A stretch of DNA of 63,693 bases, the filler included, from Psammoneis japonica (taxonomy: Eukaryota), in the NCBI GenBank assembly GCA_008632985.1. It is 3 parts of 3 records of this genome, joined end to end, with 100 filler letters (N's around TTAATTAATTAA, not from the genome) between each part and the next. Parts side by side here need not be neighbours in the genome. Positions count along the whole stretch, not along the records: positions 1 to 28,450 come from QPGO01000406.1; 2 more parts are not named here. One strand, given 5' to 3'. Positions 935-34,385 of the stretch are shown piece after piece. The notes under the pieces were generated by a model. That model saw only the letters and a program-made list of their open reading frames with translations, had not been told where the DNA came from and searched no databases. Position numbers and translations under genes: made by a program. Numbering within the stretch: the stretch's first letter is position 1; each line of letters begins with the position of its first letter.

Positions 935-2052
935 ACGAAGACTGCTTTAAAAAACAAAAACATCTCACCAGATTGTGTCATCTGACTGTCCATTGCTCGC
1001 ACGACGTGAAAACTGCTTTAGAAAATGAAAACATCTCACAGGATTGTGTCATCTAACTGTCCATCGCTTGCGCATTTCACGTTGCGCAAGGTTTAGACGT
1101 GCGACGTGAAAACTGCTTTAGAAAATGAAAACATCTCACTGGATTGCGTCATCCAACTGTCCATCGCTCGCGCATTTCACGTTGCGCAAGGTTTAGATGC
1201 GCGACGTGAAAACTGCTTTAGAAAATGAAAACATCTCACTGGGTTGCGTCATCTGACTGTCCATCGCTTGTGCATTTGCACGTTGTGCAAGGTTTAGACA
1301 CGCGACGTGAAAACTGCTTTAGAAAATGAAAACATCTCACTGGATTGCGTCATTCAACTGTCCATCGCTCGTGCATTTCACGTTGCGCAAGGTTCAGATG
1401 CGCGACGTGAGAACTGCTTTAGAAAATGAAAACATCTCACTGGATTGCATCATCTGACTGTCCATCGCTCGTGCATTTCACGTTGCGCAAGGTTTAGACG
1501 CGCGACGTGAAAACTGCTTTAGAAAATGAAAACATCTCACCAGATTGCGTCATCTGACTGTCCATCGCTCATGCATTTCATGCTGCACAAGGCTTAGATG
1601 CGCGATGTGAAAACTGCTTTAGAAAATGAAAACATCTCACTGGATTGCGTCATTTGGCTGTCCATTGCTTGTGCATTTCACATTGCGCAAAGTTTGGACG
1701 CGCGACGTGAAAACTGCTTTAGAAAAATCTCACTAGATTGCGTCATCTGACTGTCCATCGCTCATGCATTTCACGTTGCGCAAGGTTTAGATGCGCGACG
1801 TGAAAACTGCTTGAGAAAATGAAAACATCTCACTAGATTGCGTCATCTGACTGTCCATCGCTCGTGCATTTGCACGTTGCGCAAGGTTTAGATGCGCGAT
1901 GTGAAAACTGCTTTAGAAAATGAAAACATCTCACCAGATTGCGTCATCTGACTGTCCATTGCTTGCGCATTTGCATGCTGAGCAAGGTTTAGATGCGCGA
2001 CGTGAAAACTGCTTTTAAAAAACAAAAACATCTCACTGGGTTGCATCATCTG
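935..2052. repeat. Tandem array, ~100-bp unit, ~10-11 copies
   Basis: Unit cgacgtgaaaactgctttagaaaatgaaaacatctcactggattgcgtcatctgactgtccatcgctcgtgcatttcacgttgcgcaaggtttagatgcg recurs at about 1002, 1102, 1202, 1303, 1403, 1503, 1603, 1703, 1796, 1896 and 1998. Confidence 0.95.
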
Positions 2053-2379
2053 AGCCTGTGGCAGGCAATCACCTTCAAATTCTATGACACGCAGGCCTCA
2101 GCGCTGTTGTGCGCACAGCTCAGTGGCAGGCACCCATGGTGCATGGGCCCTCCTGCTGGGAAATTCAGTGACGTCGTGACACATCTGTTCAACTTGCAAT
2201 GTTCGGAGATTCCCATAAAAAACCGACGGCATTCTGAGGAACGGACACGAGATTGTGCACGCACGCACGGCGCTGCAGAACACTGTAAATCGAGGATGCT
2301 GATTCCACCAGTGTGTGTGATGTGCTGTGCTGCACCCATGTTGTGCATGCGGCAGAGTGAATGATCACGCAAGACGAAC

Positions 2380-3240
2380 TTGAATTTTTTGCTGCTGCAG
2401 ACGGGACCAGCATTCATTGATGCAGATTGCGTCAGTTGCGTTCAGCGTTCAGCAACCAAACCAAAAGCCATGAAACACAAATCGGAGTTAGAGCGTCTTG
2501 CCCCATTCAACAAATCTGGAGTCGATGATCACACAGTGTTGTCCCTGAAAAACATGATGTCCGAGCGACAAACACGAGGACGCAAAACTCGATTGAATTG
2601 CGTGGAGTGGTTGTCTGCCAGCGGTGAAGACAAACATCCAAGCAAGCCAACCATTTTCATCCGTCAAGGCCCAGCACCGCGGTGGCACTCAACCGCTGCA
2701 TCCCACTTCCTCTGGCATTTTAAGATTGGAGGAGACAATTGGAAATCAAGCAAAGTTGCTGATTGGATTGCGGATGAAGGTGAGGTGGGTGATGGATGCT
2801 TTGCACCCCACCTGTGCGAGTGCTTCCTGAGTGAACATTTGCACAGCGACCGCAGGCCCAGCATCCTCCCATTGTTGTTGAGGGCCAAGGAAAATGCTGC
2901 AAGAAAAGCAATTGCCTTTGTCAACGTAAAGAAGGGGCAATGTGTCGCTCATTTCGACAGTGACAGCTCCCTCCTTGTTGTGCCAAAAGGCAAAAAGATG
3001 GCAAAGATTCTCAAACGGTCCATCAGCGAGTCCTGCAGCTCACAAAGGGGGTCTGAGCATCGCTCAAGGTTCGACTGCACAGACCCATGGAACTTGCCTC
3101 CAGGGAGACATGAGGGCGAGTGGGCCACAGCGGTGTTGGACGCAGGGAATGCATTGTTCATCCCCCAGCATTGTTTGCATGCAGCAAAGAGTGAAGATGG
3201 CACAGTTGCCATCTCCTTTCAAGTTGAGTTTGCTCCATGA
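2380..3240 (+). pseudogene. JmjC/cupin-like 2OG-Fe(II) oxygenase relic (TpA-mutated)
   Basis: HxD motif in 'AHFDSDSSLLVVPKGKK'. The distal His strand 'VLDAGNALFIPQHCLHAAKS...VAISF' fits the JmjC pattern L.PGD.LYIP..W.H.V.S. No Tyr in 286 aa. Confidence 0.65.
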
Positions 3241-5299
3241 GACAACAACCCAAGTGATTGATTTGGTTGCTTTCCAGTGTAGCTGAGCGTTCATTGTCAG
3301 CAGAGAAATTAAATTAAGAAACAAAATTGGCTCACTTTGGCATGGAGACGGCAGTGCAAAGCCACACCAAAATCTTGGGTTGGCCCTGCATGTGCCAGCT
3401 TTAGTTGACTTCCTGCTGCACTTGCACACATTGCCCCAGCCTCCACTCTAGGCCCTGCTCCAGCAGAGTGGTGGCCAGCTGGAGCAGCTGCTCCAGAGCC
3501 AGAGAGCAGCTAGAGTGGCTCTCTACTCTCTCAAGAGCAAGAGCACAGCACGGCAGTGGAGAGCAGCTGCTGCTGCTCTCTCAGCCACTCTCTGCTGCAG
3601 CACTGCGTAGGAGCAAGGCAGTCTCCCCTGGCTGCTGTGCCGGTGCCCGCAAGAAGAAATCCAGTGTGCGACGACAGCACACTGTGTTCTGTCCATCGTC
3701 AGACCGGAGCGAGACAGAAGTGACGCAGAGAGTCCAGGAGGCTGACACCGTGCCTTGACACCTTCGAACCTGGTGTCATGTCACGAGGCTCTCTGTCCAC
3801 TCACAACATGCCCACGTTGCAAGTGTCAAACATCAAAACGCCATCAAGCATCAACTGTGCCATGAGAATCAACTCATCTTCTGGCAGCGACAACGACAAC
3901 GCAGCGCATCTAGAATGTCGACTGAGAGGAGTGCAAACGCCAACATCCAAAGAGTGTCATGTTGGTGTCCATTCATCCAACAACAAGGGAGTGGTGTGCT
4001 GCAAGAGAACAATTGAAGCAACCACTGGTTTTCCCAGGGTTCCATCAGAGGACAGCATCGTGGATGATGAATTGAGTCCAGATGAACATCCACCTGACCC
4101 TGACCACCCGAGCCAACATTTCTCACATGAGAGCTCAGCCGACGCTCAAAGACATCAATTTCTGTCGGGGCCCATTTGTCAACGCATTGTCCATGAATGG
4201 GAAATGATGGGGCATGAAATCAAACTGCACAACAAAGTGCACGAAGAAATGCGCAAGCTGTTGGTTGGTGAACGGCGAAATCCAGCAGAGGTTGCCGTTT
4301 TAGATGAGGATGAAATGGAGGATGGATGCGGACACGCAGAAGAAGACATGCCAACATTTGCATGTCAGGCAATCCGCACCAAACAAGTTTGCTTTTCCGT
4401 GGATACATTGATCCGTGAAACTGCCCTTTGTCCGCACTTTCACGACAGTCATTTTCCCGAAATCAGCCCTGAAAAATGACTGCAATGCCAGTGCTGGTGT
4501 CACCGCTTGCTGCGCGCCGATTCCAAGCATGAAAGCCATCGGCTCAAGCATTGCAAGATGAGGAGGGATGCTCTAAACTTGCATTTGTAGGTGTGTTTTA
4601 CAGCAGCTCATTCTTTTGCAGTCAGCTTCAAAAACAAGCATCTGGTTTCATCAGCTGTTCCTTTGGTTGCGCCAGAATGTCGCAGGAAATGATGACCCTC
4701 CACTCTGGGCCTGGCAAATGAAAATGCAACCCCTTCCCCTGGATTTGACATCACAAATCCTGCGCACAGCTGGTTTCGTGTTGGGATGTTGTGGCAGCGA
4801 TGGTGGCTTTCCCAAGGCACTTTTTTCACTGTGCCCGGGATGGGCTTGGTTGACTAGAGCAACAGCCCTTGGGTTCACAACCTCGGCCATGGTGGCCATG
4901 GTGTGCCGGCACTGTTGGAGAGCAAGTGCGTGCCACCGACAGCTCGCTTTGTGCAGTTTTTGGCACAAAATCCACAACAACGGAAATGCAGTGTTCGCGG
5001 CCTCATTGGTCGGTGTTCTGAATGACGCAATCATGTGATGTGATTGGCTGTGAGGTGTGTCCAATCTCCATCTTTAATGCAGCAATGCACAACAATGATT
5101 GGAAACAAAAGCAGACGAGGTTCGCGGCCATCATGTGCTGCACAGGTGCATTCTGCACAAATGTCCACTGCTGCTCGTGAGTCGGTGTTCGGGAATGACG
5201 TCAATCGTGCGATGTGATTGGCTGGGAGGTGTGTCCCCTCCCATGCACACATTGGTGCCTGGAAACAAACATGTCAACAGGCTCTTGCACGGTGAAGGG

Positions 5300-7214
5300 A
5301 TGGTGCTCGCTCCATGGCGAGGTGCCACCGGCATTCAGACACCATTGTCTCAAAAAGCACAACAAGACAGAGTCATGCCCCCATTGGATTTCAAGATTGC
5401 GGATGGAAAAATGATGACTCAGGAGGTTGTTGGCTCTGTCCATGAACGGCATGGTTTGTCATCCAACGTCTTGTGCTTGGGCATGTCACACGCCTGTGTC
5501 AAGGAGCAATTGGCGGCCAGGGGTGTGTCGTGGTCTGCCATTGACATCAAGGAAGCCGGCTTGGAACAAACTGTGGAGCTGGTTTGTCGCAATGTGTTGA
5601 CAGAAATTGACGGTCGTGACTTGGCTCGGTGTCAGTCGATGGAGATCTTTGGGATGGAGGCTCGCAAGGTCTCTCTGGAAAGCGGAGCGTGCTGTGCCAA
5701 AAATCATTTGAGCGCAAATTTCAACAGAGTTTTCCTTTCTGAATAAGATCAACAAAAATTGGAGCAAGATGACTTTTCGGCAAATCATTCTGGACTGCTT
5801 TTGGATTCCTCAAGGGACTTCGGCCATGGCACACTGGCAGCGCTCATTCTTTCATGTGGCATTGCCAGGGTTTGTGCAGAGAGGGCTGTTGGAGTTTGCC
5901 TCGGCAACTCACGACAGCAATGGATTGGGAATTGGAAATGTCTGTCTGCCTTTTTGCTGTCATTGTGTCAAGCACATTGTCTCAGGTTTGAAGGTTCTTT
6001 CCAAGCACCACACGATTTTGTTTGCACGCAAATCAGAACTCGGAGAACATGCGCTCTGGGCTGGCACATCCAAGATTTGCCCAAACACCATGCAAGAAGT
6101 GCTCAGGAAGAAGTTGAGCCAGGAAGAAGTGCACTGCACATTTGCATCCAAAGATGTGAAGGGGGCCATTGAAGATGAGCATGTTGCAAAGGAGGAAGTC
6201 GTTCGTGTGCTAGAGTGTGTCGAAGACTTTGCCAATGTGAGAATGATTCGATTGAGGCCATTGCCGATTCACAGTGCAAAGCGCGGCAAGCAAAAGGTCT
6301 CAGGAAAGGTGTTTGGGATAAATGTTGGGGGATTTGAGGGTCTTAAACCGGCCAAAGAAGTCAAGCACGGGTGTCATGATGCCTGCAAATCAGACGAGTC
6401 ATTGACGGAGTCATTGACGGCTGCAACAGCTTCTCACAAGGTGTCTGATCAAGAATCTTTGGTTGGCGCATCTCCTGAGGTTTCTGATCAAGAATCTTGG
6501 ATCGACGTGTCCGATGAGAACTCTCCAAGTGGAGCGCATGGACCGCACGATAAATGCACTTCACCCAAAAAGGCGGGTCGACCTCCGAAGAAACGAAATG
6601 TTGCATTTTCGCCCATGAGGGGTTTCAAAACAACTTTGCCCTACTTTCCAGTGTGCATGATTCCATTGAAGGCATTGGCGATTCACAATCCAAAGCCCGG
6701 CAAGCACAAGGTGTCAGGCAAGGTGTTTGGGACAAATGTTGGGAGTTTTGAGGGTCTCAAGCCGGCCAAAGAAGTCAAGGACGCGTGCCATGATGCCAGC
6801 AAATCAGACAAGTCATTGACGGCTGCAACAGCTTCTCCTGAGGTGTCTGATCAAGAATCTTTGGTTGACACATCTCCTGAGGTTTCTGATCAAGAATCTT
6901 GGATCGGTGTGTCCAAATGCTCTGCACCCATCTCTGTTCGCATGTCTTTGGGTGATGACTGGCGCATGACGGAGGACAACATGACGAACATCACCACTCC
7001 CAGCATGCGGATCAGGGATGCCTTCAATGAGAACTGTCCAAGCGGAGCGCATGGGCCGCACAATGGATGCATTTCACCAAAAAAGGCAGGTCCACCTCAG
7101 GAGAAAAGAAGGGTTCCATTGTTGCCCATTCACAGTTTCAAAACAAATTTGGTCTGCCCTGGATGGCAAACCTGTCATGTGATCTGCAGCAGCAGCGGGA
7201 GTCGAAATGGCTGA
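5300..7214 (+). pseudogene. Decayed gene with possible Rossmann methyltransferase-like N-terminal domain and internally duplicated low-complexity C-terminus
   Basis: ORFs 5099-5746 and 5769-7214 join across a stop/frameshift. Motifs VLCLGMS, FRQIILD(C/Y)FW and GNV(C/Y)LPF. Segment ~6290-6620 is repeated at ~6710-7145. Confidence 0.35.
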
Positions 7215-7310
7215 AACTGTGGCACGTGATTGGCAAATTGGCAACAGCTTCATGATTCAGCAGGTGCTCTTTCTGTGTCAACTGCATGAGAAGCAATTGC
7301 GCGCATCTTC

Positions 7311-7413
7311 GTGCGATTTACACCGACGCAGAGAATGCTAAAAAAGTCTGATCACTCCCAAATTGGGAGCGATTAGATTTTTTTAGCTGTCTCTGCATCT
7401 GTGTAAATCGCAC
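7311..7413. repeat. 103-bp near-perfect palindrome (51-bp arms, 1-nt loop)
   Basis: Left arm 7311-7361 matches the reverse complement of 7363-7413 at 44 of 51 positions. Confidence 0.95.
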
Positions 7414-8329
7414 AAAACATGTGCCCTCATTCATGTGCACAGCACTGCTGCGGTGTGCAGACAGACTTTGCCACCAGCTACGTCACCTTTTGCCTGCCAC
7501 ATGCGTCATCCAGTCTGTTGAGATCTGTCAAAGCGAATCTACAAAATCTCATGTTCTTTGTGGCATGTTCAATGAACAGAAACCCCATGATTCCGTTGAT
7601 GCAGATTTTGCACCAGAACCCACACATTCGAGCGACTTCGACCGCAAATGTTGCTGTTCTCCTGCACAACAACAAAAAAAAAACAGCCATGGCAAGCGAA
7701 GACGAACATCCTGTGGTCACAATGGCCAAGGCTGTTAAAAGCAATTGCTTTCCGACTGAAGAGAAGCGCTGTCGCGACAAGTGGATCGAGTTCCTGTCAG
7801 AAGCCGGCCTTGCAGAACAATGCCTGTCTTGGTCCAATGGTTCCACGAAAAAAAAGAAAGGGTGCAGGTGCATGAAAAGAGCCTTCCATCCTGTGATCTC
7901 TCCTGAGAGCAACTCTCCAGGAGCCCCGCCCAAAAGTTTTTGGATTTGTTGTTTTCGAATGCTTCGGTGCTTTCTTCTGACAATGGAATGCTTTCAACAA
8001 TCGTCCCTCTGATCGAAAAGGGAAAACATGGTCTTTTTCTCAAAGCAAAACTGCTGGCACAAGCCGGCGTGTTCTCCTCAACAGGAAAAAACAACTGCAG
8101 CGCAAAGTGCATGTGGATTTGTCTCCCAGGCACCGAGGATGTCGTTGTTTGCCAAAATGCATTCTGCCACACATTCAACCTCAGAAGGTCATGGTGGCAA
8201 AAAAACAAGGGATTCGGCCATGGCTCAAGCTCCTGCAGCTTCTGCTGATGCCAGGGTTCTTGTTGCCGGGGCTCTTGCAGCTCCAACTCAAGCCAGCAAG
8301 CGGAGATGGTGGGAGGCAGTGACTCTCAT

Positions 8330-9600
8330 GACTCAAGCCCCTGCTCTGACCCCTGTTCCGACTCTAGCTGCTGTTCCTGAATTTACCACCAAAGCTTTTG
8401 CTTCCACCGGGGCGGAAGATGGAGTTGCAGCTGTGGCCCCGGCTCAAGCTCCCATGACTCAAGCACCTGCTCCAACTCCAGCCACTGTTGCTGAAGCTGC
8501 AACTGCAGCTGCTGCCACTGAAGCTGCTTTTACTTCTGCCGGAGCTGCTGCAGCTCCAAATGCAATGATGCAAGATGGAATTGCAGCTGCGGCCCCGGCT
8601 CAAGCTCCCACAACTCAAGCACCTGCTCCAACTCTAGCTGCTGTTGCTGAAGCTGCAACTGCAGCTGCTGCCACTGAAGCTGCCACCGACACTTTTACTT
8701 CCGCCGGAGCTGCCACAGCTCCAAATGCAATGATGGAAGATGGACTTGCAGCTGCGGCCCCGGCTCAAGCTCCCACAACTCAAGCACCTGCTCCAACTCT
8801 AGCTGCTGTTGCTGAAGCTGCAACTGACGGGCTCCAGTCCCAGGTGGGACTTTTTGTGACATTTGCCCCGTGGAATTCTGCGTGCAAGCTCTGTGGTTCG
8901 CACTCTGGCCAATGGACATGTTCATCTTCAACATAAAATGAACGGCCAAGTTTGCAGTGCATGTGTCTCTGTCCGCACTCGAAGTTTTGGACAATGCGCC
9001 TGCCCCACTCCATTCTTAAGACACTTGAGAATGGCGCAGAAGAAAAAACATTAAAAGTTGTTGAATGGATCGCCTGACAATTGCACCATAAAATGATGCA
9101 AAATTTCGCCAAAATCACATGGAAATGTACATGCGCGACACACGACGCGAATCAAAAAACTGTCGATGTCACAGTTCAGCAGTGCAAGGTCCCACCTAGA
9201 CCTGGAATGCGTCAACTGTGGCAACTGCCACTGAAGCTGCCACCGACGCTTTTGCTTCTGCCGGAGCCACCACAGCTCTAAATGCAACGACGGAAGATGG
9301 AATTGCAGCTGCAGCCCCGGCTCAAGCTCCCACAACTCAAGCTCCCACAACTCAAGCACCTGCTCCAACTCCAGCTGCTGTTGCTGAAGCTGCAACTGTG
9401 GCCACTGCCACCGAAGCTGCCACCGACACTTTTGCTTCTGCCGGAGCTGCCACAGCTCCAAACGCAACGACGGAAGATGGAATTGCAGCTGCGGCCCCGG
9501 CTCAAGCTCCCACAACTCAAGCCCCTGCTCCAACTCTAGCCACTGCCACTGAAGCTTTCACCAACGCTTTTGCTTCCGCCGGCCCGGCTGAAGCTCCTGC
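8330..9600 (+). repeat. Coding tandem repeats (Ala/Thr/Pro-rich), interrupted by MITE copy 1
   Basis: Repeated 'EDGIAAAAPAQAPTTQAPAPTLAAVAEAATAAAATEAA' units lie on both sides of the 8827-9212 insertion. Confidence 0.85.
8827..9212 (+). mobile_element. MITE-like non-autonomous DNA transposon, copy 1
   Basis: Imperfect TIRs ACGGG(C/T)TCCAGTCC..GGTGGGAC / GTCCCACCTAGACCTGGAA.GCGT. 6-bp TSD caactg at 8821-8826 and 9213-9218. Three other copies occur in the window. Confidence 0.9.
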
Positions 9601-10225
9601 AGCTTTTACAGATGCCGCTTCTGATCCACTGTGGAAAGCTCACAATCCTCAGCCTTGCTCTAAAATGGGTGGTGCGCCCATTCTTTTAGATGGAGTTAAG
9701 TGGGAAGAACTGGAGCAAAAAGGAGAGCTCCAACCCCTTCCATCACCTCCTCCAATGCTTGAATTGCAAATGCCAGCAAGCTGCAGCTGGACTTGTGATG
9801 CGACTCGTCACGTTGTGTGTGACAAATTTGGCTCCAAAGAACCGCNNNNNNNNNNNNNNNNNNNNNNNNNNNNNNNNNNNNNNNNNNNNNNNNNNNNNNN
9901 NNNNNNNNNNNNNNNNNNNNNNNNNNNNNNATCCCCTGTCAGTGGTGGAAACTTGGGATCGCAGGTTTGGGAAGGACGGAGTCCAAAGAAGATCAGTCGT
10001 TGCTCTGGTGGATCCTCCAAAATTCAGGAAAAAGTGAGAAAACGAAAGCGTTCACGACGATCAAAAAGTTGCAATGAGGTCACTGAGCTGCAAAAATTGT
10101 CACGGGAATGGACATGTCCGCGCTCTACAACAACGAATGTGACGGAAGACCTTTGGGTTGACCCTTCCTCTGTGGCTGCAGGAGCCTTTTCGAAAAGTCC
10201 AAGCAAGTGTTGATTGCCAAAGCGA

Positions 10226-10395
10226 GTTCTCACGGCAACCCAGGAAAATCAGGACGGGTCGTTGTCAGAGCACCAGTTGGCATTGACGGTCGAACCCTCT
10301 TTCATTGCTGGTTCTCACGGCAACCCAGGAAAATCAGGACGGGTCGTTGTCAGAGCACCAGTTGGCATTGACGGTCGAACCCTCTTTCATTGCTG
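10226..10395. repeat. Exact 85-bp tandem duplication
   Basis: 10226-10310 is identical to 10311-10395, and the duplication shifts the reading frame. Confidence 0.9.
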
Positions 10396-11732
10396 GTGCC
10401 GGCTGTGGCTTGTTTGTGACCTGCGCCGGGCCGCTTCAGTTGTGGCGTGCCCCAGGGCATGTTGACCTTGGGAAGTGTGGCCCACATCATGCTGAGGACA
10501 TCAAGAATCAAGTGACGATGGAGATGAAGAGTTTTGTTTTCGAGAACAAACCCAGTGAGTGGAGCTTCGAAGGTCCTCCCAGCTGCAAAGGCAAACCTGA
10601 GTGTAACTTGCATGGCAAGAGTGTGGATTCCAATGTCATGTTTGACACAACATGTGACGAGACGGGCCTCGCACATGAGATGGCGTCAAAAACTCTTCTT
10701 CCATTTGCGAATGAGATCGACAAACCTGCAGACGGAACAGACAGAACAAGTTCAAACAGGTCAAAAGGAAAAACAGGTGGGCCATTCAGTCAGCGGCTTG
10801 ACATTCAAAATGTTGAAGCTCTGCACCACGACAACGGCAGTGTGCATTGTCTTCTTCGCAAAGGGGCAACGCTGCTTGAAGGTGAAAAAACAGAACTCCT
10901 TGTTTGCTGTGGGAACGAGTGTGATGCTGTGCGGAAAATCAAGTGCTCTGTCTGCGGCAACAATGCTCTTGTCAGGCCTGGGAATTCCTTTGTAATCGCA
11001 GGGAACAGCAGTCGCAATGAAGACGGAATTGAAAACAAAGATTTGTCGTCATTGTCTTGTGAGATCACTGATGACAGTGGCGGTCTGCCAGAAGGACGTG
11101 GGTGTGTCCCTCAGCTTTGTTTGAAATGTCGAAGATGCGTGCCTGTCCGCAAGGCTTTAACAAATGAAAGGAGCGGCATGTCCTGTCAAACCATGCATCT
11201 CATCATTTCTGGGTGTCGTGAGGCAGAACTTCACACTGTTCTTGATTTTCTTGTTGGAACCCCCCCACTGCCAGCGTTTTCACAATGGAGAATGATCTGG
11301 GCGGCTCGGTGTGTTCAGTCCTGCACTGCCCAAGTGTGTTGCCGATCGACGAAAGATGGAGTTCCTTTTGAAATCGCAGAAAAGATTCGCAAGGTTTTGC
11401 AGCTCTTCCCTCGAGGACATGGCAGTCAGCATCACACCCAAGACACAGAGGTCAATGATGCTCACAGACTGCTGGGACACTGGATTCGCCTGGACGTTGG
11501 AGAAAACGGAACTCACTCCGGCATGGTGGAAGAAATCGTTTCCTCGCCAACTGCCGCTGCCATCGGAAGGATTCCACATGGATGCGGTGGTGAGCCATCG
11601 CAGTGTCAGCTGGCTAACTTGAGATGTTGGATCTCGTTCCGTGACCTGGACGATGCAGACAGAATCCTCAGTGAGCAAGAGGTTTGTGACAATTTGTTGA
11701 ACAACGTAGACAAGTTTTTCCTTCCGTTCTGA
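10305..11732 (+). pseudogene. SET-domain-like protein relic with possible C-terminal Tudor-like barrel; probably the 3' part of a long gene starting near 7689
   Basis: GAG(C)GLFVT matches SET motif I GAGYGLF. Also 'LLPFANE', and 'ELLV(CC)GNE(C)' matches the SET terminal ELxxxYG..Y once Tyr is restored. Confidence 0.6.
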
Positions 11733-12056
11733 ATTGCCCGAATGTTTGACGTTGGGGGGACTCATGACAATTGGTGCTCCTGGCACATGCAAGGTTGCTG
11801 GCTGTTTCCACAACATGCATCATTTGCACAATGCACGAATCAGTTGCAGCACATGCCAAGGCAAATTTTGAGGCAGGTTGCTCTTTAAACTGAAATGCTT
11901 CAAGTGATCCTTTTCCCATTTTGCATCTGCTTTCATCATCTCCGAGCACCAGTGGTTTGGCATGGGAGTCCACTGTCGGTTTTTGTGAGGTTTGGTCCTC
12001 GTTTTGGTCCTCATTTTCATTCCCACAATGACAACATGGTCCAGAAAGGTTTGGAG

Positions 12057-13271
12057 TCAAAGACCGACACCGACAAGGACTGTTGGTGAGCGTCCCACCG
12101 CACTGTGCTGTCCTGCTCCTCGATGGCTCTCTTGGTTCCTCTTTTTCCCTCGTGTTTCTGGACCAAGCAAGGTTTGTGCGTCAAGAACCAAAAAACAAAT
12201 TGGCCAAATGGCAGCGGGTGCACCTCTTTTGCAACACAGCAAGTGACGTCCAGCCTTGTTCATTTGACAAAAGCAATCCATCTTCGCTTGAGTCTCCTTG
12301 GTCGGCATTTCCATGTGCTTCAAAGAACACGAAGCCTCTCCAATTTCTTCTGGTGTTGTCTTTAGCTCACGACACGCCCACAAGTTGAGATCTGTGAGAT
12401 TTGGAAGCCCCAGAACCTCTTTTGGAACACGGGTCAATTGCGTGCAACCCATCAAACACAACTCTTTTAAAGATTCAAGTGACCCGATTGCAACAGGCAA
12501 CTCAATGATGTCAGCATCATCACTCAAATCCAGTCCAGTCAGGTTCACCATGCCGCTTGTGCCATTTTGAAGGAAATCATTCAAGCCTCTGCATCCACAC
12601 AGCTCAAGCATTTGCAAGTTGGAGAGGTGGCCAATCTCAAGAGGAATTTCTGACATTTTACCACAAAGTGACATGTGCAACGATTCGAGACTCATCAGCT
12701 GGGAAACTCTCGCTGGCAACGCAGTGGGGGAATCACAACATTCCAGCCGCAAGCATTTCAAATTTGGCAGTCGGAAGAGTTCATCTGGCAACTCAGTGAC
12801 TTCCGCGCAGTGTTCAATCTCCAGCTCCCCCAGGTTTGTGGGGTGCAAAATTCCATGTGGCAGTCATTTTAGCTCTGTGCACCCACACAAATGCAGCTCC
12901 GCCAAGCTCCGCAACTGTCCAATCTCATCAGGCAAATCAACAAGACTCGTGCAACAAACAAGGCGCAACACTTTGAGGCCGGTCAACCGTCCAATCTGTG
13001 GCGGCAAACGCTCAAGATGCTGGCAGGATGACAAGTCCAGTGTAGTCAGTCGGTGCAGCAAGCCTGTCTCAGGTGGTGATTCTCTCATTCTCGCCCAACG
13101 ATCTTCGCTCAAGATCAGGAAAATGTGTTTGCGCTCCATCAAAGCCTCCTCAGACAGTCCCGCTGCTCGAGCCAATGTGTTGAGGCCATGCAGGGCTTCG
13201 CCATCCTCCATGGTGCGTGATGGTGCTCTTCTTCTTTTGGGAATTGGGATGTGCTGCAACAGCTGCCGCAC
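12057..13271 (-). pseudogene. Leucine-rich-repeat protein pseudogene
   Basis: LxxLxLxxCxxLxxLPxxIG repeats in ORFs 12864-13271 and 12057-12848, separated by an in-frame TGA. C-terminal cap 'DCFCQMNKAGRHLL'. Confidence 0.85.
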
Positions 13272-14158
13272 TGTCGAAAGACAGACGGCACCAGTTCATC
13301 GAACACCACCATGGAAACCGAAAACCATCCCACATGCAGACACACCAACAAACATGATGCACGCACGACAGGCAATTGGCGAAATTTTCGTTCATTGCTG
13401 TTGGCTGCGGCATGCAGGGCTGCCGCACAGTGCGAGGCAGCATGTCAAAGCAGAAGTTTGATTGCACACGAGGTGTTTCCCCTCTCATGAACATGTCCAA
13501 CCATTGCAAGGTGCAAATTGTCTGAAATTTTGATTGGCTACGAGCGAGCGAGCTAGACCGACGCACGATGGGCAGTTGGCAAAATTTTGATTGGCTGAGA
13601 GGCATTTCCCCGCATTGTGAACATGTGCAATTGTGAAAGGTGTTGATTTGGCTGCCCCCCACGCACGCGCCCCATCCAACCATCATGCATGCACAGAGTG
13701 CCTCTGCAGCACTGTGCAGTGCTAGAGAGCAGCAGGGCCCTGCTCTGCGCAGCAGCGCTGTGGCAGCTGGCTGCTTCTAGCAGAGACCAGCAAGCAGCAG
13801 AGACTGCTCTTCTCTGCTGGCTAGAGAGAGCAGAGCTGGCTGCTCCAGCTGCCACATCAGCATCAGACCCAAGACCCACCATGAGACAAAGCAAACGAGT
13901 GCATCAATCGATCCACCACACGCTCTGAGCATGTGCACCATGAGCATGGAACCGGCTTCTGCCGTGGTCCAGGAGGCAAATGACACGCCTTTGATCTCTG
14001 TGGGGCAGGAGTCGCACTTTGACACTCTTCTCATCTGCTTTGAGATGTCTTGTCGTGAGGTGGCGGCTCCGAGTGAGCAACTTGTGCCAACGTCTGAGTG
14101 TCCCAGCAGAAACCCCCCAAAAACCAACAACACCATGCATGGGAAAAAGGTGCTCACG

Positions 14159-14545
14159 ACGGGTTCCAGTCCTGGGTGGGACTTTTTGTGACATTTGCCC
14201 CGTAGAATTCTACGTGCGAGCTCTGCAGTTAGCACTCTGGTCAATGTGTGCACTTGTCTTCGACATTAAAAAAACGGCCAAGTTTGCAGTGCATCTGTCC
14301 CTGTCCGCACTCAAAGTTTTGGATGATGCGCCTGCCCTGCGCCATTCTTAAAACACTCGAGAATGGCGCAGAAGAAAAAAACATTAAAAGTTGTTCAATG
14401 GATGGCCTGACAATTGTGCTATAAAATTGTGCAAAATTTCGCAAAAATCACGTAGAAATGCACGTGCGCGACATGCGACGCGATTCAAAAAACTGTCGAT
14501 GTCACAGTTCAGCAGTGCGAGGTCCCACCTAGACCTGGAACGTGT
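14159..14545 (+). mobile_element. MITE copy 2 (least mutated)
   Basis: Same TIRs as copy 1. Flanks ctcacg / ctcacc (5/6 TSD match). Retains the internal palindrome CGTAGAATTCTACG. Confidence 0.9.
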
Positions 14546-14707
14546 CTCACCATCGCTTGTGCCATTGCTCATCATGATAAAAAGGAGTGCCCCTTTGGGC
14601 TGAAGGCAAGAAGCAAAATGGCTCCTAAAGGTGGGTTTGGCTAGCCGACAAAGCTGAAAGTCGAGCACTGCTCTTTCAACTGCACTTGCGACGAAAAAGC
14701 CAGAAAG

Positions 14708-16027
14708 ATGCACATGGGTTGGAAAAGAAGACATGAAAAGCATGAGGAGCGTCGCACGAGGAAGAATCGGCAGAGTCATCGTAAAATCTGTCACAACCAT
14801 GCACTTGACAGCAACTGTGACAAGCCGAGCTGCGATTGCTGCAAGACCAAGGATTGCAAGGGAAAGCAGGCCAATGGGGAACGCACCTGTGTGGCGTGTC
14901 AGTCAGGAGCAAAATTGAAGGGCAACAAGTCCAAGCGAGCTAAAATTGTGAAAGGAACAATCCAGGAGGACGATTTGGTGCGGTCGCCACCGTTTCTGTT
15001 CTGGAACCCACGTGAAGGTGAAGAGGACAGGAAACTGCACACAAGGGACCAAGTGGAAGAGTCGCTGCGTGATGTTGCAAAGGTGCTGACCCCCCCCCCC
15101 AACAGAAAACCTCAACGAGACCTGGCCTTTGCTCAAGCTCAGCAAAGACAGATGCATGCCACCCGCCGCCCCTTCGCTTCAAAGCAGAGGATTTGCCTCC
15201 AGCTCATGAGCATGGGATGTTTCGAGTGTTCAGGAGACAGGACGTCACTGATCTGGAAAGGATGAAACTGCTTGGACAGTTGAAAGATGGTGGCAATGGC
15301 ATCTCTGTGAGAGAGTCATGGAGTGAAGGTGACACCCCCCCAAATTGTGCATTTCCTTGGGACGAGTGTCCTGTCTTTGAGGCCGCTCGACTTGGTGCCA
15401 CAGCTCCCGCAACAAAGAACAGGGCATTTGACGCATGCTGTTGTTGTCCGTCGCCCTGACCATCCTGACAAGTGCAACAAGGCTGACATGCAACAACAGA
15501 TTGAAAAGGAACCGGACCCAGAAAAGGTGGCTGAACTTCTGCAAGTTGTGAAGTTTCTGTTGTCCAGCAGGATCTTTCATGCTCAACGAGATGGGCAGCA
15601 ACTGGGCATCACCATCCATTCTCCTCACATTGACACCTGTGGTTCTAGTGCTCTGTTCATCCCATTGCAGGGCATCAGCTTCAATTTTGTTGCATTTTGT
15701 CATGCATCTGAACCCGAAGAGCCGGAATTTCATGACTCTGAGGATTGTCGTGCATGCCTGGATTGGAAGAGGAGTTTGGTGGATGATGAACTGAGAAAGG
15801 TTGAGGCAGCAGAATGTCTTTTCAAGAAGTTTGTCAAAGATGATAAAAGGTGCCACAATCACCATCGCATTCTCACCTTCAAGCTGGACTCAGAAGTGGA
15901 AGGTCAGGCGTTGATGTTTCCGGCTGGGGTTCATCCCCATTTCACAATCATTCCCAAACAGGAGAAACCCCGGATTCTTGGGATCCTTCATGAAAAGACA
16001 ATTAAAAACACACGGCTGACAGTCCAA
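14708..16027 (+). pseudogene. Cys-rich N-terminus plus 2OG-Fe(II) dioxygenase-like (TET/JBP-like) domain, copy 1, frameshifted
   Basis: 'SPHIDT' (HxD) and 'GQALMFPAGV(H)PHFTIIPKQEKPRILGIL(H)EK' (distal His, Arg on the last strand). The inferred ancestral stop TAA is now CAA at 16025-16027. Confidence 0.5.
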
Positions 16028-16790
16028 GAGTCCAGTCAGTGTGGGCAAGCAGATCTCCATCTTTGTTGCTGCCAGATTGTCGCCATTGCCATCATGCAAG
16101 CAGAACCATCACAGCCGCGCATGGGAGCACATCACACCTGCATCATGCATGCACCACACACAGCCGATGCCGACATCACTCTAGCCACTGGCCAGTGCCG
16201 GCAGAGTTGGGATCACACGAAGTTGCAGTGTGGTGTCATCAGCACCATGCATGTGCCATGCGGAGCTGATGCCGACTGCCAATCCAGCTGCTGGCTAGAG
16301 CAGATTCAGGATCACGCGAAGTTGCAGTGTGGTGTCATTGGTGCCACACACGTGCCATGCAGAGCTGACGCCGACCACCAATCTAGCCAGCCACCGATCA
16401 CGTGAAGTTGCAGTGTGGTGTCATTGGCATCATGCATGTGCCATGCGGAGCTGACGCCAACCGCCAATCTGGCTGGAGTGGATTTGGGATCATGCGAAGT
16501 TGCAGTGTGATGTCATCAGTGTCACACATGTGCCATGCGGAGATGACACCGACCACCAATCTAGCTGGCTGCCGATCACGCAAAGTTGCAGTGTGGTGTC
16601 ATTGGCATCACACATGCATCAGACCACATTGCACACAACAGGAGCTGATGCCGACCACTGGCACTGGAGTCGGGACAGGCATCACCCAACGCAGCTGATG
16701 CGGACCACTGCTGCTGGCCAGTGGGGACAGGCATCACCCGAAGTTGCAGTGGTGTCACTGGCATCACACATCACTCAACATGAAGTCCAC
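15421..16790 (+). repeat. Segmental duplication copy A (dioxygenase C-terminus plus ~85-99-bp tandem array at 16200-16760)
   Basis: Colinear with 18859-20340. Array unit gatcacgcgaagttgcagtgtggtgtcattggcatc...ggagctgacgccgaccaccaatctagc. Confidence 0.9.
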
Positions 16791-16857
16791 CAAAGCTCAA
16801 AGATTGATTTTGTCACTGCGACTCTACTCTCAACAGAACACCAAAGGCATCGCAAGA

Positions 16858-18606
16858 TCATGCCGCATGGACAACCTCATCCCAATCCGTTCCGCTCTTA
16901 ACTCTCAACAGAACGCCCAAGCCATTGCAAGATGTTGCCATGTTGACAACCTCCTCCCAATCCGTTTTGCTCTTGGTGACTTGCCTCAGCAAAAAGGAGC
17001 CCTTCGCCTGCATGTTTTTGTTCTCATCAAATTTTTTCATGCTTTCGATGGTCATTCGAATCAACCCCGCAGCAAACATTTCCGCCTTAAAGTCGTCATC
17101 CTTGTCCGCAAGAATTCCCAACAAATGACAAGAACTGGCACAGCATTCGCTGCGGTCACCAAAGTCTTGCATGACATTGACAATGGTGCGAAGGAGGTCT
17201 CGACAGATGACTGAAACAGTGCAGAGGCGTTCTGTGCACTCTTCACTTGCGCATGAAAGATTCGACAAAATGTCCAGACCCTTGCAGACAAACTCATGGT
17301 CGACCAGGAACTTCTCCAGTTTTTTCAGCATGAAACAAGGCGCAGCGGCTTCCATGGCCAACAGGCTGTTTTCTTCTGATTTGGTCAGTTCGTGCAGTTT
17401 TTCAGTTGCCTTTTTAACCATTGCAAAGTCGTCACTCGTGCCCAAGCCATGCCACACAAGCTGTTTGGTGCAAATTTCACTGGTTCGTGAAGCAGTGGCA
17501 TTGTTGCCCTCAGTGCTGGTGCTGCTGCAGTCAGAGTCACTGCTGCTTGGAGCAGCCTTGGCAGCAGCAGCGGCAGAGGAGGTGGTGTTGCGCCTTGAGT
17601 CTCTTCCAGCCATTGCAGCCAAGCTCTTTGAGGAGGTGGTGTTGCGCCTTGAGTCTCTTCCAGCCATTGCAGCCAAGCTCTCACGCGGAGCCTTGGCAGC
17701 CAGTTTCGCAGCCAAGCTCTTACGCGGAGCCTCGCGCAGAGCCTTGGCAGCCAGTTTCGTAGCCAAGCTCGCATCGGTCCTCTGAAAGCTCGTAACAGCC
17801 ATTGCAGCCAAGCTCTTGCGCGGAGCCTTGGCAGCCAGTTTCGCAGCCAAGCTCTCACGCAGAGCCTTGCGCGGAGCCTTGGCAGCCAAACTGGCTTGCG
17901 CAGCACTGCTGGGGTGGCCAAAGCGAGCTTTCGTGTCAGTCCTCTGAAAGCTCGTAACTTGACTGATTTGCAAAGCAGTGGCATCGTCAGAGTCGCTGCT
18001 GCTGTCGTCAGAGCCACCGGAGGAGGTGGTGTTGCGCCTTGAGTCTCTTGCAGCCATTGCAGCCAAGCTCTTGGAGGAGGTGGTGTTGCACCTTGAGTCT
18101 CTTCCAGCCATTGTAGCCAAGCTCTTGCGCAGAGCCTTGGCAGCCAGTTTTGTAGCCAAGCTCTTGCGCGGAGCCTCGCGCGGAGCCTTGGCAGCCAAAC
18201 TGGCTTGCACAGCGCTGCTGCTGTTGCTGCTGCTTGTGGAGTTGCTCCTTTTCCACGCTTTTGCATCAAACATCTTACGTGGATCGGCAGCAGTGGCAGC
18301 AGCGGCAGAGGAGCTTTTCCATGCTTTCGCAGCAAACATCTTACGTGGATCGGCAGCAGCAGCGGCAGCAGAGGAGCTGATTTTGCGCCTTGTGGCTTTC
18401 TCAGACAAGATCTTTGCTGCGCTGGTTCATGAGGCGGCAGTGTCGCTGCTGCTTGAGGAGTGGCTCCTTTTGAGGGGGCACCTTGCCGCTCCTCTCATTG
18501 CACCATCGGTGCGCAATGCAGTTGGTGGAATTGCAGGTGAGGAGTTGCCGTTGCGAACACCTTGCTCATCAGGAGGGTCATGGTTGTCGCTGTTGACGTT
18601 GCCCAT
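16858..18606 (-). pseudogene. ARM/HEAT-like repeat protein with N-terminal histone-H3-tail-like repeats
   Basis: C-terminal helical repeats ('TIVNVMQDF...SCHLLGILA', 'AGLIRMTIESMKKF..NKNMQAKGSFLL'). N-terminal 'KAPRKSLATK/AAK' repeats. In-frame TGA at 18427-18429; upstream ATG at 18606. Confidence 0.6.
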
Positions 18607-18858
18607 GGTTGACGATGCAGCTTTGTGTGCATGGGAACAGATGTTGCGGGCTCTTTTGTTGTCAATCATGCCGCACAAATTTCACGTGCATTTCTACGTG
18701 CCAGCATGTTGCAGTCGTCATGCATCCCTCATGGGCATGACTGACAGACCGCCCATTGACATGAGTGGTGACCTGAGTGAAACTCAACTCCCTGCCAGCC
18801 ACTCCACTGGTGGCTAGAGTGAGGGTGCTCCTGCTCTGCCAGCAGGTGCTCCAGCTGC

Positions 18859-20340
18859 AGGCATTTGATGCATGCTGTTGTCGTCCGTCGCCCTGACCAT
18901 CCTGACAAGGCTGACATGCAACAACAGATTGAAAAGGAACCGGAACCAGAAAAGGTGGCTGAACTTCTACAAGTTGTGAAGTTTCTGTTGTCTGGCAGGA
19001 TCTTTCATGCTCAATGAGATGGGCAGCAACTGGGCATCACCATCCATTTTCCTCACATTGACACCTGTGGCTCTAATTCTCTGTTTGTCCCATTGCAGGG
19101 CATCAGCTTCAATTTTGTTGCATTTTGTCATGCATCTGAACCCGAAGAGCCGGAATTTCATGACTCTGAGGATTGTCGTGCATGCCTGGATTGGAAGAGG
19201 AGTTTGGTGGATGATGAACTGAGAAAGGTTGAGGCAGCAGAATCTCTTTTCAAGAAGTTCATCAAAGATGACAAAAGGTGCCACAACCACCATCGCATTC
19301 TCACCTTCAAGCTGGACTCAGAAGTGGAAGGTCAGGTGTTGATGTTTCCGGCTGGGGTTCACCCCCATTTCACAATCATTCCCAAACAGGAGAAACCCCG
19401 GATTCTTGGGATCCTTCATGAAAAGACAATTAAAAACACGTGGCTGACAGTCTGAGAGTCTGGTCAGTGTGGGCAAGCAGATCTCTGTCTTTGTTGCTGC
19501 CAGATTGTCGCTGTTGCCATCATGCAAGTGGAGCCATCACAGTCATGCATGGGAGCACATCATGCCTGCATCATGCACGCACCACACACAGCCGATGCCG
19601 ACATCACTCTAGCCACCAGCCAGTGCCGGTGGAGTCGGGATCACGCGAAGTTGCGGTGTGGTGTCATTGGCGTTGTGCATGTGCCATGCGGAGCTGACGC
19701 CGACTGCCAATCTAGCTGCTGGCTAGAGCAGATTCGGGATCACGCAAAGTTGCAGTGTGGTGTCATTGGAGCCATGCACGCACCATGCAGAGCTGACGCC
19801 GACCACCAATCTAGCCAGCTGCCGATCACGCGAAGTTGCAGTGTGGTGTCATTGGCATCACACGTGCACCATGCAGAGCTGACGCCGGCCACCAATCTGG
19901 CTGGAGTGGATTTGGGATCACGCGAAGTTGCAGTGTGATGTCATCAGTGTTGTGCATGTGCCACATGGAGCTGACGCTGACCACCAATCTAGCTGGCTGC
20001 CGATCAAGCAAAGTTGCAGTGTGATGTCATCAGCATCATGCGTGCACCATGCAGAGCTGACGCCGACTGCCAATCTAGCCAGCTGGCAGATTCGGGATCA
20101 CGCAAAGTTGCAGTGTGGTGTCGTTGGCATCATGCACGCACCATGCGGAGCTGACGCCGACCACCAATCTAGCCAGCTAGCTGCCGATCACGCAAAGTTG
20201 CAGTGTGGTGTCATCAGCATCACACATGTGCCATGCGGAGCTGACGCCGACCACTGATCTAGCCAGCTGGGACAGGCACCACCCGAAGTTTGCAGCGGTG
20301 TCACTGGCATCGTGCATTGCTCAACATGAAGTCCACCAAT
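18859..20340 (+). repeat. Segmental duplication copy B (second dioxygenase fragment and longer ~85-99-bp array at 19600-20330)
   Basis: Near-identical to 15421-16790; the differences concentrate at TA/TG/CA and CG/TG sites. Confidence 0.9.
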
Positions 20341-21395
20341 TTCAACCAGTCAACTAACGCAATTTTAACTTCGCCAATGATTTCGCCAATTCCGCCATTT
20401 CACTGTCGTTCATCACCCAATTCAGATCGGGGTTAAACCTGTCGTCGTCGCCGCTGCTCTGGTCATTGCCAGCGGGATCAACAAATTGCTTCAGTGCATC
20501 GTTTTCTTGTTTGATGGACATGGTCCTGAACCGCAATGAGAAGGGGTGGGGGCCAGGGTCAGGGTTTGGGCAATGGGCAGTGGGCAAAGGCCAAAAAGAA
20601 AGGCCAAAGGGAAAGCGAAGCTAAGAAGGGAAAAGGAGACGGAAAAGGGGACAAGGAAGTGGGAAAGAGGGCCACAAATGACATCAAATGCAAATTTATT
20701 TAGCTGATTTTGTGGAAGAAAATGCAGACAAATGAACTGCAGAAAAGAAATGCAACATGAAAGATTCAAATGGAGGTTGGAGAGAGCAAGGAAGGAGCTC
20801 GAAAAGGAGCTGAAAATTCTGAAACAATTGAAGTGTCATCGTCAGTTCCAAGGGCATTGTTTGCAAGCTGGAGCTGGCTGGTGTTTCCAAACATTTGCAT
20901 GGCTGGACGGGAAAGAACCAGACCTTCATGGTGCTCTTGATTGAGTGTCTGAACTGTTGCATCATCTGGGCAAATGAAAACCTCATTGCCAGGAAACGGG
21001 CGTCGACGCTGGCATTGTCGCTGGCATTGCCAATGGCATTGTCGCTGGTGTTCAGGCACGGTGATCTGTGGTGGTCTTTGTTGGTGGCATTGCAGCTGGC
21101 AGGTGGCGCACATGATGGCGTTGACGCTGGCTCTGTGTTGAGAGTGGGACATGATGTTTGTTGTCTGAAGGTCATTGTGGCGGCGGATTGCTGCGATGAG
21201 CTGGGTTGTGGCTGCCACTGTTGGCGGCGCATGTCGCTGTGCGTGGCGTTGTCGGCAATGCATTCAAAAAGACAATGTGGTGCAGATGTCCTCACAGCAG
21301 CTCAAAAAATGGAGCAAAGATGTCTCAAAAAGAACGGTTTTGGGTTGAAGATGTGGGGGCTTCTGTGGAATTGGTTGAAGGGCGATTTTTCAAAA

Positions 21396-21766
21396 TGATT
21401 GTCAAAGGAAGACCACAGCCTGTGAGGCAAGCAAGAAGAGGCAGGAGGCATTTTTACAGTGCATGTGAAAGTGAAATGGAATGTTTTCGTTCATTGATCA
21501 AGGGATGGATGAGGAAGCAAGCTGTGGAGAAGCCGATGTTCAAGAAGCGGGCACGACTGTCTGTTGAAATGGAGCTTCATTTGACCCACTCAGGCAGTCG
21601 TGAGCCAGACTTGGACAATCTTTGCAAATTTGTGATGGACTTTGCCAATGGATTGGTTCACAATGACGACATTGATGTTGAAAAAATCTGCGCACGAAAG
21701 TTCAGCTGTGCTCCCAAGTCTGATGTTGGGAGCACCTTCTTTTTGGCGAAAAGAGCGGATCTTTAA
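21396..21766 (+). pseudogene. rusA: RusA-family Holliday junction resolvase (TpA-mutated, frame open)
   Basis: N-terminus 'IVKGRPQPVRQAR' and 'PDLDNLCKFVMDFANGLV(H)NDDIDVEKICARK' match the RusA catalytic motif PD.DN..K...D.L.G..(Y/W).DD..V. Confidence 0.8.
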
Positions 21767-21929
21767 ATTGCAGCATGCGGAGTTGAGAAGGAAAGGGCAC
21801 GTGCAAAGACAAGGTGAGAGCATCTTGCAAACTCGTTGCACATGAAAACACACAATTTGGTTTGCAAAGTCATTGTAGAAATCTGCTTTTGAGACAACAC
21901 GAAATGTGCACCGTCAGAGGTGAATGTAG

Positions 21930-22335
21930 AATTTGCCAGGGAAATGACTCACCCACAGACAAAGCAACACAGACATTTTGACACTGCCAAACAACAATTT
22001 TGTGAGCAAATGGGGAGGGAAATGAAACACCCATAGACAAACTGACACAGACGTTGCAACACCGCCAAACAAAATTTTTGTGAGCAAATGGGGAGGGAAA
22101 TGACACATCCATGGACAAACTTACACAGACATTGAGACACCGCCAAACAAAAATTTGGTGAGCATGTGGGGAGGGAAATGACACACCCACGGACAAACTA
22201 ACAAATACAAACTGACACTGCCAAACAAAAATTTTGTGATCACATGGGGAGGGAAATGACACACCCACATACAAACTAACAAAGACAAACTGACACACCC
22301 TCGGACAAAGCAACAAAGACAAACTGACACAGAAG
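21930..22335. repeat. Tandem array, ~78-bp unit, ~5 copies
   Basis: ttttgtgagcaaatggggagggaaatgacacacccat(a/g)gacaaact recurs at about 22000, 22079, 22157 and 22234. Confidence 0.85.
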
Positions 22336-22384
22336 CTGTAAGAGCTCATAACCTATTTGATGTAAAAGCTCATAACCTGTTTGG

Positions 22385-22510
22385 CACATGTGTGACATGT
22401 GCACACATGTGTGTGTGCATGCATGCACATTTTAGTGCCTGACCAAGCACCCAACCAAGTGCCTGACTAAGTGCCCAACTGAGTGCCCAACCAAGCACCT
22501 GACTGAGCAC
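22385..22510. repeat. Alternating purine-pyrimidine tract plus 12-bp minisatellite (6 units, inferred ancestor GTACCTAACTAA)
   Basis: gtgcctgaccaa gcacccaaccaa gtgcctgactaa gtgcccaactga gtgcccaaccaa gcacctgactga at 22435-22506. Confidence 0.9.
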
Positions 22511-28427: not shown

Positions 28428-28450
28428 CTGTTTGCTGTTGGTTGCACAAG

Positions 28451-34380: not shown

Positions 34381-34385
34381 GGCAC

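Follow-up and report, generated by a model that had tools for sequence, protein, structure and literature searches.

The locus examined here raises the question of what kind of DNA keeps long open reading frames (ORFs) of chromatin-type enzymes after the genes themselves have died. The analysed feature was positions 2380-21766 of a 63,693-nt stretch of Psammoneis japonica DNA (GCA_008632985.1), which is joined from three parts and called the window below; all positions count along the whole window. The original prediction regarded the feature as what remains of a single large mobile element, or of an endogenous virus, which carried an anti-silencing toolkit and was killed by a mutator acting at TpA. 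The mutator was supported in our analysis; the single element was not. We lean slightly towards a low-copy, decayed cluster or mosaic of mostly host-type genes, lying in a TpA-hypermutated repeat island. The features are collected in Table 1.

Dinucleotides of the feature were counted and compared with the numbers expected from base composition. TA was observed 124 times (1140 expected), TG 1914 (1190), CA 1941 (1220), and CG 728 (1273), i.e., the observed/expected ratios (o/e) were 0.11, 1.61, 1.59, and 0.57, respectively. Such TpA depletion, coupled to CpA and TpG enrichment in a contiguous block, marks TpA-hypermutated DNA. Nearly every TpA has become TpG or CpA, and approximately 40% of CpG has also become TpG or CpA. 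A change from TA to TG or CA never makes a stop codon and removes the TAA and TAG stops, which lets dead DNA retain long open frames. The stop codons in the six frames of the feature were 850 TGA, 103 TAG, and 93 TAA. Tyrosine codons turn into Cys or His codons because their TpA is changed to TpG or CpA. Tyrosine made up 0-0.5% of all 11 main ORFs, compared to 3.3-4.3% in three ORFs of unmutated stretches.

The direction of the change, A:T to G:C at TpA, was read from the SET-fold gene and from an internal segmental duplication. When the SET ORF was aligned with its homologues, Tyr was present in at least 30% of homologues at 14 columns, and the window carries Cys at 11 of these and His, Phe, and Asn at one each. 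The Cys codons are TGT or TGC and the His codon is CAC, i.e., 12 of the 14 columns fit the change. The two duplicates were aligned over 1357 columns with 107 mismatches, of which 44 were TG/CA, 30 were CG against TG or CA, 4 were TA against TG or CA, and 29 were other. The 44 TG/CA pairs among the 107 mismatches show that each copy acquired its changes independently and that the 1.4-kb duplication predates the mutation. The TA depletion with TG/CA excess and the changed Tyr columns support the predicted inactivation: the copies derive from genes that once coded for proteins, and they decayed through the action of the TpA mutator. At the former Tyr positions of the SET ORF, the plus-strand A-to-G change (Cys, 11 times) is far commoner than the minus-strand one (His, once). 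Across genes, the TG/CA strand bias relative to gene strand was mixed, without a consistent rule.

The feature is the middle part of a larger depleted island of at least 28 kb. The one exceptional bin, 22001-22500 (TA o/e 0.40), is the site of the 78-bp satellite. On the right, the island is limited by an N gap at 28451-28550, beyond which TA o/e is 0.33-0.73; on the left, depletion begins at base 1 and the end of the island runs off the window. Other TA-depleted blocks were found at approximately 31.5-44, 47-51.5, and 55.5-63.7 kb. The DNA at 44201-45363 is of normal composition and encodes CCB1 (cytochrome b6f assembly) in a gene with an intron; by this gene, the source of the window is a photosynthetic eukaryote. 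Rfam and tRNA scans of the window gave no match. TA o/e was 0.00-0.07 in both 22500-28450 and 31500-44000, whereas CG o/e was 0.67-0.93 in the former and 0.10-0.61 in the latter. Because both blocks are equal in TA and differ in CG, the losses of TpA and CpG are uncoupled.

The SET domain had been predicted correctly, in a family that Pfam does not recognize. A full HMMER pass over 1.84 billion representatives gave 31 relatives of the SET ORF (best E=1.5e-46), and the best alignment, with 34% identity, covers query residues 21-422 in a single unbroken stretch. No Pfam SET match was found for the ORF (E<=10) or for the 18 relatives scanned (E<=0.01). The family profile, searched against PDB sequences, gave no SET match and one chance match (E=0.91), and the ESM Atlas gave no usable match for the ORF. 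The fold evidence is a model of the homologue P0006, not of the window's copy. P0006 is 28% identical to the window ORF and was modelled from a 36-row alignment that included the window frame, with a predicted local distance difference test score (pLDDT) of 87.3. By Foldseek, the first approximately 200 residues of the model matched PRDM9, MLL1, and SET7/9 (E 3.4e-5 to 1e-3, probability 1.00), and 23 matches of the model reached E<=0.001. By this modelled fold, the window ORF is confirmed as a predicted member of a SET-fold family unseen by Pfam.

The diatom family resembles the SET-domain lysine methyltransferases (PRDM9, MLL1, SET7/9) in that its N-terminal approximately 200 residues fold as SET. 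Its consensus carries SET-like blocks, which we take to correspond to the GxG, N-H/E, and ELxxxYG blocks. SET domains usually carry N-H, whereas the consensus of the diatom family has N-E. The family further differs in being unrecognized by Pfam, in the parts that follow the SET domain, and in that the window copy is dead. In the P0006 model, residues approximately 240-393, C-terminal to the SET fold, form a helical part and a small beta-barrel of five strands. Weak Tudor and CXXC matches were found in three relatives. In the window copy, Cys (at one position Asn) has replaced the Tyr of the ELxxxYGxxY block near the C-terminus, as well as the Tyr of five other columns in which at least 70% of homologues carry it. 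Because these Tyr positions are replaced, the catalytic and S-adenosylmethionine-binding residues of the window copy are not intact.

The SET family appears to be cellular. Transcripts named from the centric diatoms Coscinodiscus wailesii and Corethron hystrix account for two of its members. On metagenome contigs, the homologue forms an open frame of 1131-1314 aa, and TA o/e of the loci is 0.65-0.94. Its neighbours were NUDIX, DUF6824, and G-patch genes in L003 and L004, two loci of a single organism with 98-99% identity, and trypsin/EGF/PAN genes in L006. These foreign loci, i.e., two informative neighbourhoods and a small sample, share nothing else with the window. Viral SET proteins matched the P0006 model no better than cellular ones did (best E=1.7e-4 in BFVD, compared to 3.4e-5 in PDB).

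The unbroken alignment over residues 21-422 makes the intronless state evident for the SET frame alone. The lack of evident introns, predicted for the whole feature, holds for this gene; elsewhere open frames are uninformative, since TAA and TAG are lost to the mutator. The 5' end of the SET frame carries a perfect tandem duplication of 85 bp (10226-10395), close to an N gap (9846-9930). Contigs of a public run bridge 10203 and 10467 with 178 different letters, and the assembly at 10226-10395 is doubtful.

Other genes were recognized by a Pfam scan of 103 stop-to-stop frames of at least 90 aa in 1-24.8 kb (E<=0.1), 26 of which were also searched in PHROGs. The predicted JmjC-like oxygenase ORF reached 21.0 bits for JmjC_2 (cut-off 22) and 19.8 bits for Cupin_8 (cut-off 27.4), i.e., both matches were under the cut-off. 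In PDB, the ORF was aligned with Bacillus subtilis YxbC/putative asparaginyl hydroxylase (7zcc/1vrb, E=0.0019). AHFDS pairs with AHFDA and LHA with WHS, so that HxD and the distal His line up with those of a protein of solved structure. The evidence is weak but consistent, and points to a putative 2-oxoglutarate oxygenase of the cupin type. The closest relative of solved structure is a putative protein (asparaginyl) hydroxylase, not a histone demethylase. It is supported that the SET and JmjC-type proteins, at least, have chromatin-enzyme-like folds.

The leucine-rich-repeat (LRR) gene passed the Pfam cut-offs as LRR_14 (52.1 bits, cut-off 40), LRR_4 (41.1 bits, cut-off 27), and LRR_8 (30.6 bits, cut-off 27), in line with the prediction. 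The ARM assignment was weaker, i.e., two Pfam matches of 18 bits against cut-offs of 26-27. Within this frame, tandem peptide repeats of the type KAPRKSLA(A/T)KLAAKA were observed at 17440-18249 on the minus strand. By eye, these repeats presumably resemble the histone H3 tail. The likeness to H3 was not borne out in PDB, where no histone was among the matches of the 16861-18426 repeats at E<=10.

RusA, also predicted, was clearly detected, with 40.5 bits for PF05866 (cut-off 22.8) and E=1.1e-9 for phrog_140. In 5.8 billion clusters, its sole relative was P0001/P0033 (49-52% identity). P0033 is an intact environmental protein with 49% identity to the window ORF, and the block REPDLDNL is identical between the two. 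It is encoded on a 10.6-kb contig (L007/L009) that was binned as a Chlamydiaceae genome. Over its positions 1-10617, L009 shows a CG o/e of 0.39 and a TG/CA o/e of 1.4; it holds an intact RusA gene and a copia-type RNase H remnant matching window 41390-42097. Because of the low CG ratio and the copia remnant, L009 looks eukaryotic, and it is probably a mis-binned algal contig. Beyond RusA and the copia remnant, this only foreign RusA locus shares nothing with the window, and no match to the JmjC, 2-oxoglutarate-oxygenase-like, or SET ORFs was found in the Chlamydiaceae bin that holds it. No recombinase was found beside RusA by Pfam at E<=10, either in the window (10 frames, 19.9-28.4 kb) or on L009, and a PDB search of the neighbour of RusA on L009 gave no recombinase. 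Translations of 19.9-23.3 kb, read by eye, showed nothing recognizable. A literature search returned nothing relevant on RusA in diatoms or giant viruses.

Two enzyme calls of the original prediction failed. The methyltransferase call probably refers to 3724-7214. Between 3405 and 7211, five ORFs without assignment gave no Pfam match of any kind at E<=10, methyltransferase families included. In this part, the 500-aa frame at 5712-7214 on the plus strand contains two repeats of approximately 410 bp, each with a basic stretch of the KKAGRPPKKR type that is AT-hook-like by eye. The TET/JBP-like dioxygenase was predicted as duplicated; the duplication is real, and the TET/JBP identity was not recovered. 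For the frame at 14645-16200, no Pfam family, Tet_JBP included, was found at E<=10, no homologue among proteins of 200-2000 aa, no ESM Atlas match, and no PDB sequence match at E<=10. Its model, built from a 2-row alignment, had a pLDDT of 28.3, which is too low to use. The HxD...H...R pattern of this frame was seen by eye and fits many 2-oxoglutarate oxygenases. The TET/JBP identity of the frame and of its partial duplicate found no support in the Pfam, Atlas, homologue, or PDB searches.

The copy number was approached with contigs of one public DNA run, which may be the assembly's own source. They were placed on the 19.4 kb of the feature at 80% likeness or more, and contig depth is no copy number. 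Of 3172 fitting contigs, 502 were at 99% or more, 790 at 95-99%, 1217 at 90-95%, and 663 below 90%. Exact contigs (0 differences, depth approximately 30) covered TA-poor DNA at 7069-7510, 10712-11371, and 11482-12269. Diverged contigs, with 24-129 differences in approximately 640-680 bases (4-19%), were found at 5416-6098, 10712-11371, and 12372-13007. The summed depth over the genes was 63-196, i.e., 2-6x that of exact contigs, whereas a miniature inverted-repeat transposable element (MITE) in the same region reached 100-2000x. Related copies of several genes are clearly present in the same sample, and they are few compared to a true high-copy repeat. Because diverged copies of several parts occur in one sample, the genes are not single-copy, in agreement with the original prediction, for which single-copy genes, syntenic with ordinary host loci in relatives, had been named as a finding that would speak against it.

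Hallmark genes of a mobile element or virus were also sought. Among 103 + 120 ORFs, no transposase, recombinase, RepHel, polymerase, or capsid domain was found, nor at E<=10 around RusA. Apart from the local palindrome, the inverted-repeat search gave pairs of 24-34 nt at 71-88%, i.e., no inverted termini at the scale of an element, and no defined termini, inverted or direct, with a target-site duplication were found. The original prediction had likewise identified neither transposase, capsid gene, nor termini. The sensitivity of Pfam was checked on 38 of the 91 frames of at least 75 aa in the 31.5-44 kb block (plus strand, 32.5-42.8 kb), where a copia element is known; this element left one trace, RVT_2 with E=0.022. 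The feature is less decayed than that block (CG o/e 0.57 compared to approximately 0.25), and RusA and LRR are still clearly detected in it. That no hallmark gene was found therefore carries little weight. In IMG/VR, four of five queries gave no relative, i.e., the SET family (scanned with a smaller alignment), the JmjC ORF, the 2-oxoglutarate-oxygenase-like frame at 14645-16200, and the ARM frame; the fifth, the RusA homologue, gave two loci alone, at 28-34% identity. The same gene neighbourhood, sought in foreign loci as the original prediction had proposed, was not shared in the three informative neighbourhoods (two of SET and one of RusA).

Known systems were compared with the island. In ascomycetes, repeat-induced point mutation changes C:G to T:A at CpA in repeated DNA and creates stop codons. 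In both cases, duplicated or repeated DNA carries many transitions at a single dinucleotide, and the genes in it are killed. The difference is that A:T is changed to G:C at TpA here, and stops are removed, not created.

In Bigelowiella natans, integrated giant-virus and virophage DNA is reported to undergo A-to-G and T-to-C changes at TpA only, locally and approximately 1000-fold above background (Mettrop et al., bioRxiv 10.64898/2026.01.13.699255). Both systems have TpA-confined changes to TpG and CpA, local action with sharp limits, low TA with high TG+CA, and silent or foreign-looking DNA as the target. The depletion is deeper here, with a TA o/e of 0.11 compared to 0.45 in the B. natans insert reported there. 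The host here is diatom-like, CpG decay is added, and copies of host-type genes are hit, without viral hallmark. Direction and rate would here be derived from Tyr-to-Cys/His changes alone. Fungal DNA transposons are reported to encode TET/JBP (Kojima 2025, PMC12730594). They share with the window the idea of a mobile element that carries enzymes of epigenetic marks, and the candidate frame here is duplicated and decayed. Unlike in those fungal elements, no transposase was found here and the TET/JBP identity failed, and membership is not claimable.

The reading in which the approximately 20 kb, or the whole 28-kb island, is one mobile element or endogenous virus, with chromatin-gene cargo that aided its resistance to silencing until the TpA mutator killed it, is unlikely. 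Several observations agree with it. In B. natans, the same type of mutator is reported to strike integrated giant-virus and virophage DNA; giant-virus SET folds fit the family model roughly as closely as cellular folds do; RusA is of a foreign type; diverged copies are present in the same sample; fungal DNA transposons with TET/JBP genes are known; and decay could hide hallmark genes. These are opposed by the missing hallmark genes and termini, by the unsupported TET/JBP and methyltransferase calls, by the four empty IMG/VR scans and the distance of the RusA loci in the fifth, and by a neighbourhood that is conserved in none of the foreign loci. The island also extends past both ends of the predicted feature, and the gene depth of 2-6x fits badly with a many-copy family when set beside the MITE, although depth is not copy number. 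A narrower form of this reading is a low-copy, very large element or virus of the diatom that had its own SET, JmjC-type, and 2-oxoglutarate enzymes together with RusA and was silenced by the TpA mutator of the host; we consider it quite improbable.

A patchwork, in which small mobile elements of unrelated kinds accumulated in a silent region together with the genes they had captured, is a doubtful explanation as well. Examples would be a Crypton-like relic of recombinase and RusA at 21.2-21.8 kb, or elsewhere a Helitron-borne cargo of SET and 2-oxoglutarate oxygenase genes. On this view, the genes would be linked to transposons without having been a single unit. Mobile DNA does collect in the window, as two MITE insertions and the copia remnant show, and satellites stand between the genes. 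However, searches of the window, the surroundings of RusA included, gave neither a tyrosine recombinase nor a RepHel domain, the RusA and SET ORFs share no short words with other indexed DNA stretches, and the intact foreign RusA contig L009 is likewise without a recombinase. It is very improbable that the loss of TA is an artefact, i.e., base-calling error on modified DNA or an assembly error. Six N runs in the window and the 85-bp tandem duplication, where contigs carry other letters, would suit such an error. Against it, contigs of the public run, which may be the assembly source, reproduce three TA-poor stretches with 0 differences. The loss is also confined to sharp-edged blocks adjoining normal genes, and at shared sites one duplicate carries TG where its partner has CA.

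For the decayed cluster or mosaic of mostly host-type genes, the following course is proposed. The island would be silent, repeat-rich DNA with dead copies, most of them full-length, of nuclear genes that look ordinary, i.e., SET-fold, FIH/YxbC-like JmjC-cupin, LRR, and ARM-like genes, a duplicated frame with a 2-oxoglutarate-oxygenase-like motif, and RusA. Tandem arrays lie between the genes, and two copies of a high-copy 389-bp MITE, which would be later insertions, lie inside the region. The segment may be a duplicate of low copy number, or a mosaic of several duplicates, that came to lie in silenced chromatin and was then edited by a TpA-specific A-to-G mutator. The genes would not have formed one mobile unit. 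Four points weigh against this proposal. RusA is a phage/bacterial-type gene and thus not an ordinary eukaryotic gene. Host origin was shown for the SET family alone, by transcripts and two informative neighbourhoods. Six long frames are without any family assignment. Furthermore, Pfam is nearly blind in heavily mutated DNA, and a decayed transposase could escape.

Table 1. Features of the window (63,693 nt), with positions along the whole window
Feature	Position	Strand	Details
TpA-depleted island	1..28450		TA o/e 0.00-0.27 in scored 500-base bins, with one exception
100-bp satellite	1002..2053		10.6 copies, 89% matches
Dead ORF of putative JmjC/cupin-type 2-oxoglutarate oxygenase	2365..3240	+	291 aa, no Tyr; Pfam, PDB alignment
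Four open frames without family match	3724-4479, 4577-5038, 5099-5746, 5712-7214	+	ORF and Pfam/PHROG scan
Palindrome	7308..7416		109 bp; two 54-nt arms, 85% complementary, 1 nt apart
Ala/Thr/Pro-rich repeat frames	8013..10213	+	split by MITE insertion and N gap 9846-9930
165-bp tandem array	8416..8826		within Ala/Thr/Pro-rich repeat frames
MITE copy A	8826..9214		389 bp, 6 TA, partly mutated
SET-fold gene of diatom family, dead full-length copy	10287..11732	+	481-aa frame, no Tyr; homologues, model
LRR gene copy	12060..13295	-	one frame, one in-frame TGA at 12864-12866
MITE copy B	14158..14546		389 bp, 10 TA; shares 89% identity with copy A and ends in 25-nt terminal inverted repeats
Frame originally predicted as TET/JBP	14645..16200	+	three in-frame TGA; Cys-rich N-terminal part, then HxD...H...R pattern
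Segmental duplicate 1	15423..16793	+	pairs with 18860-20339
86-92-bp tandem array	16211..16616		inside segmental duplicate 1
Lys/Ala/Pro/Arg-rich tandem-repeat frame	16861..18426	-	522 aa; weak ARM/TPR-like C-terminal part
Segmental duplicate 2	18860..20339	+	92.1% identical to duplicate 1
Tandem array	19639..20270		tandem-repeat scan
RusA-type Holliday-junction resolvase ORF	21200..21766	+	Pfam, PHROGs
78-bp satellite	21938..22287		4.5 copies
MITE, third copy	26210..26600		1 TA
Copia-type retrotransposon remnant	40650..42097	+	RVT_2 trace; RNase H-like part 33% identical to L009:8054-8569
MITE, fourth copy	59028..59423	-	8 TA

The repeats were predicted as satellites and a long palindrome separating the genes. 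Five tandem arrays were found, and the palindrome is real, but its arms are short. The MITE copies are 389-396 bp long. The summed contig depth over copies A and B was 3,000-67,000, compared to approximately 30 for exact contigs. The third copy, placed in a TA-free block, is the most mutated because it keeps one TA against 6, 10, and 8 in the others. Apart from the MITE, nothing in 1-22400 recurs in 22401-63693. The copia remnant sits in the strongly CG-depleted block at 31.5-44 kb.

If true, the reading as one element would link a new chemistry of eukaryotic genome defence with a new class of invaders that manipulate chromatin. A giant element equipped against silencing would be important if real, and the present evidence is insufficient for it. 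Two by-products came from the analysis, i.e., a diatom SET-fold family that is missed by curated profiles, and a RusA-type resolvase gene in eukaryote-like DNA, the intact relative of which lies on a contig in a bacterial genome bin. In practice, the removal of TAA and TAG is a trap, since it leaves dead DNA with long frames that resemble intact, intronless genes and leads to over-reading. For the biology of the organism, the decayed cluster would mean that the TpA mutator of a diatom-like genome also destroys full-length copies of host-type genes, beyond recognizable transposons.

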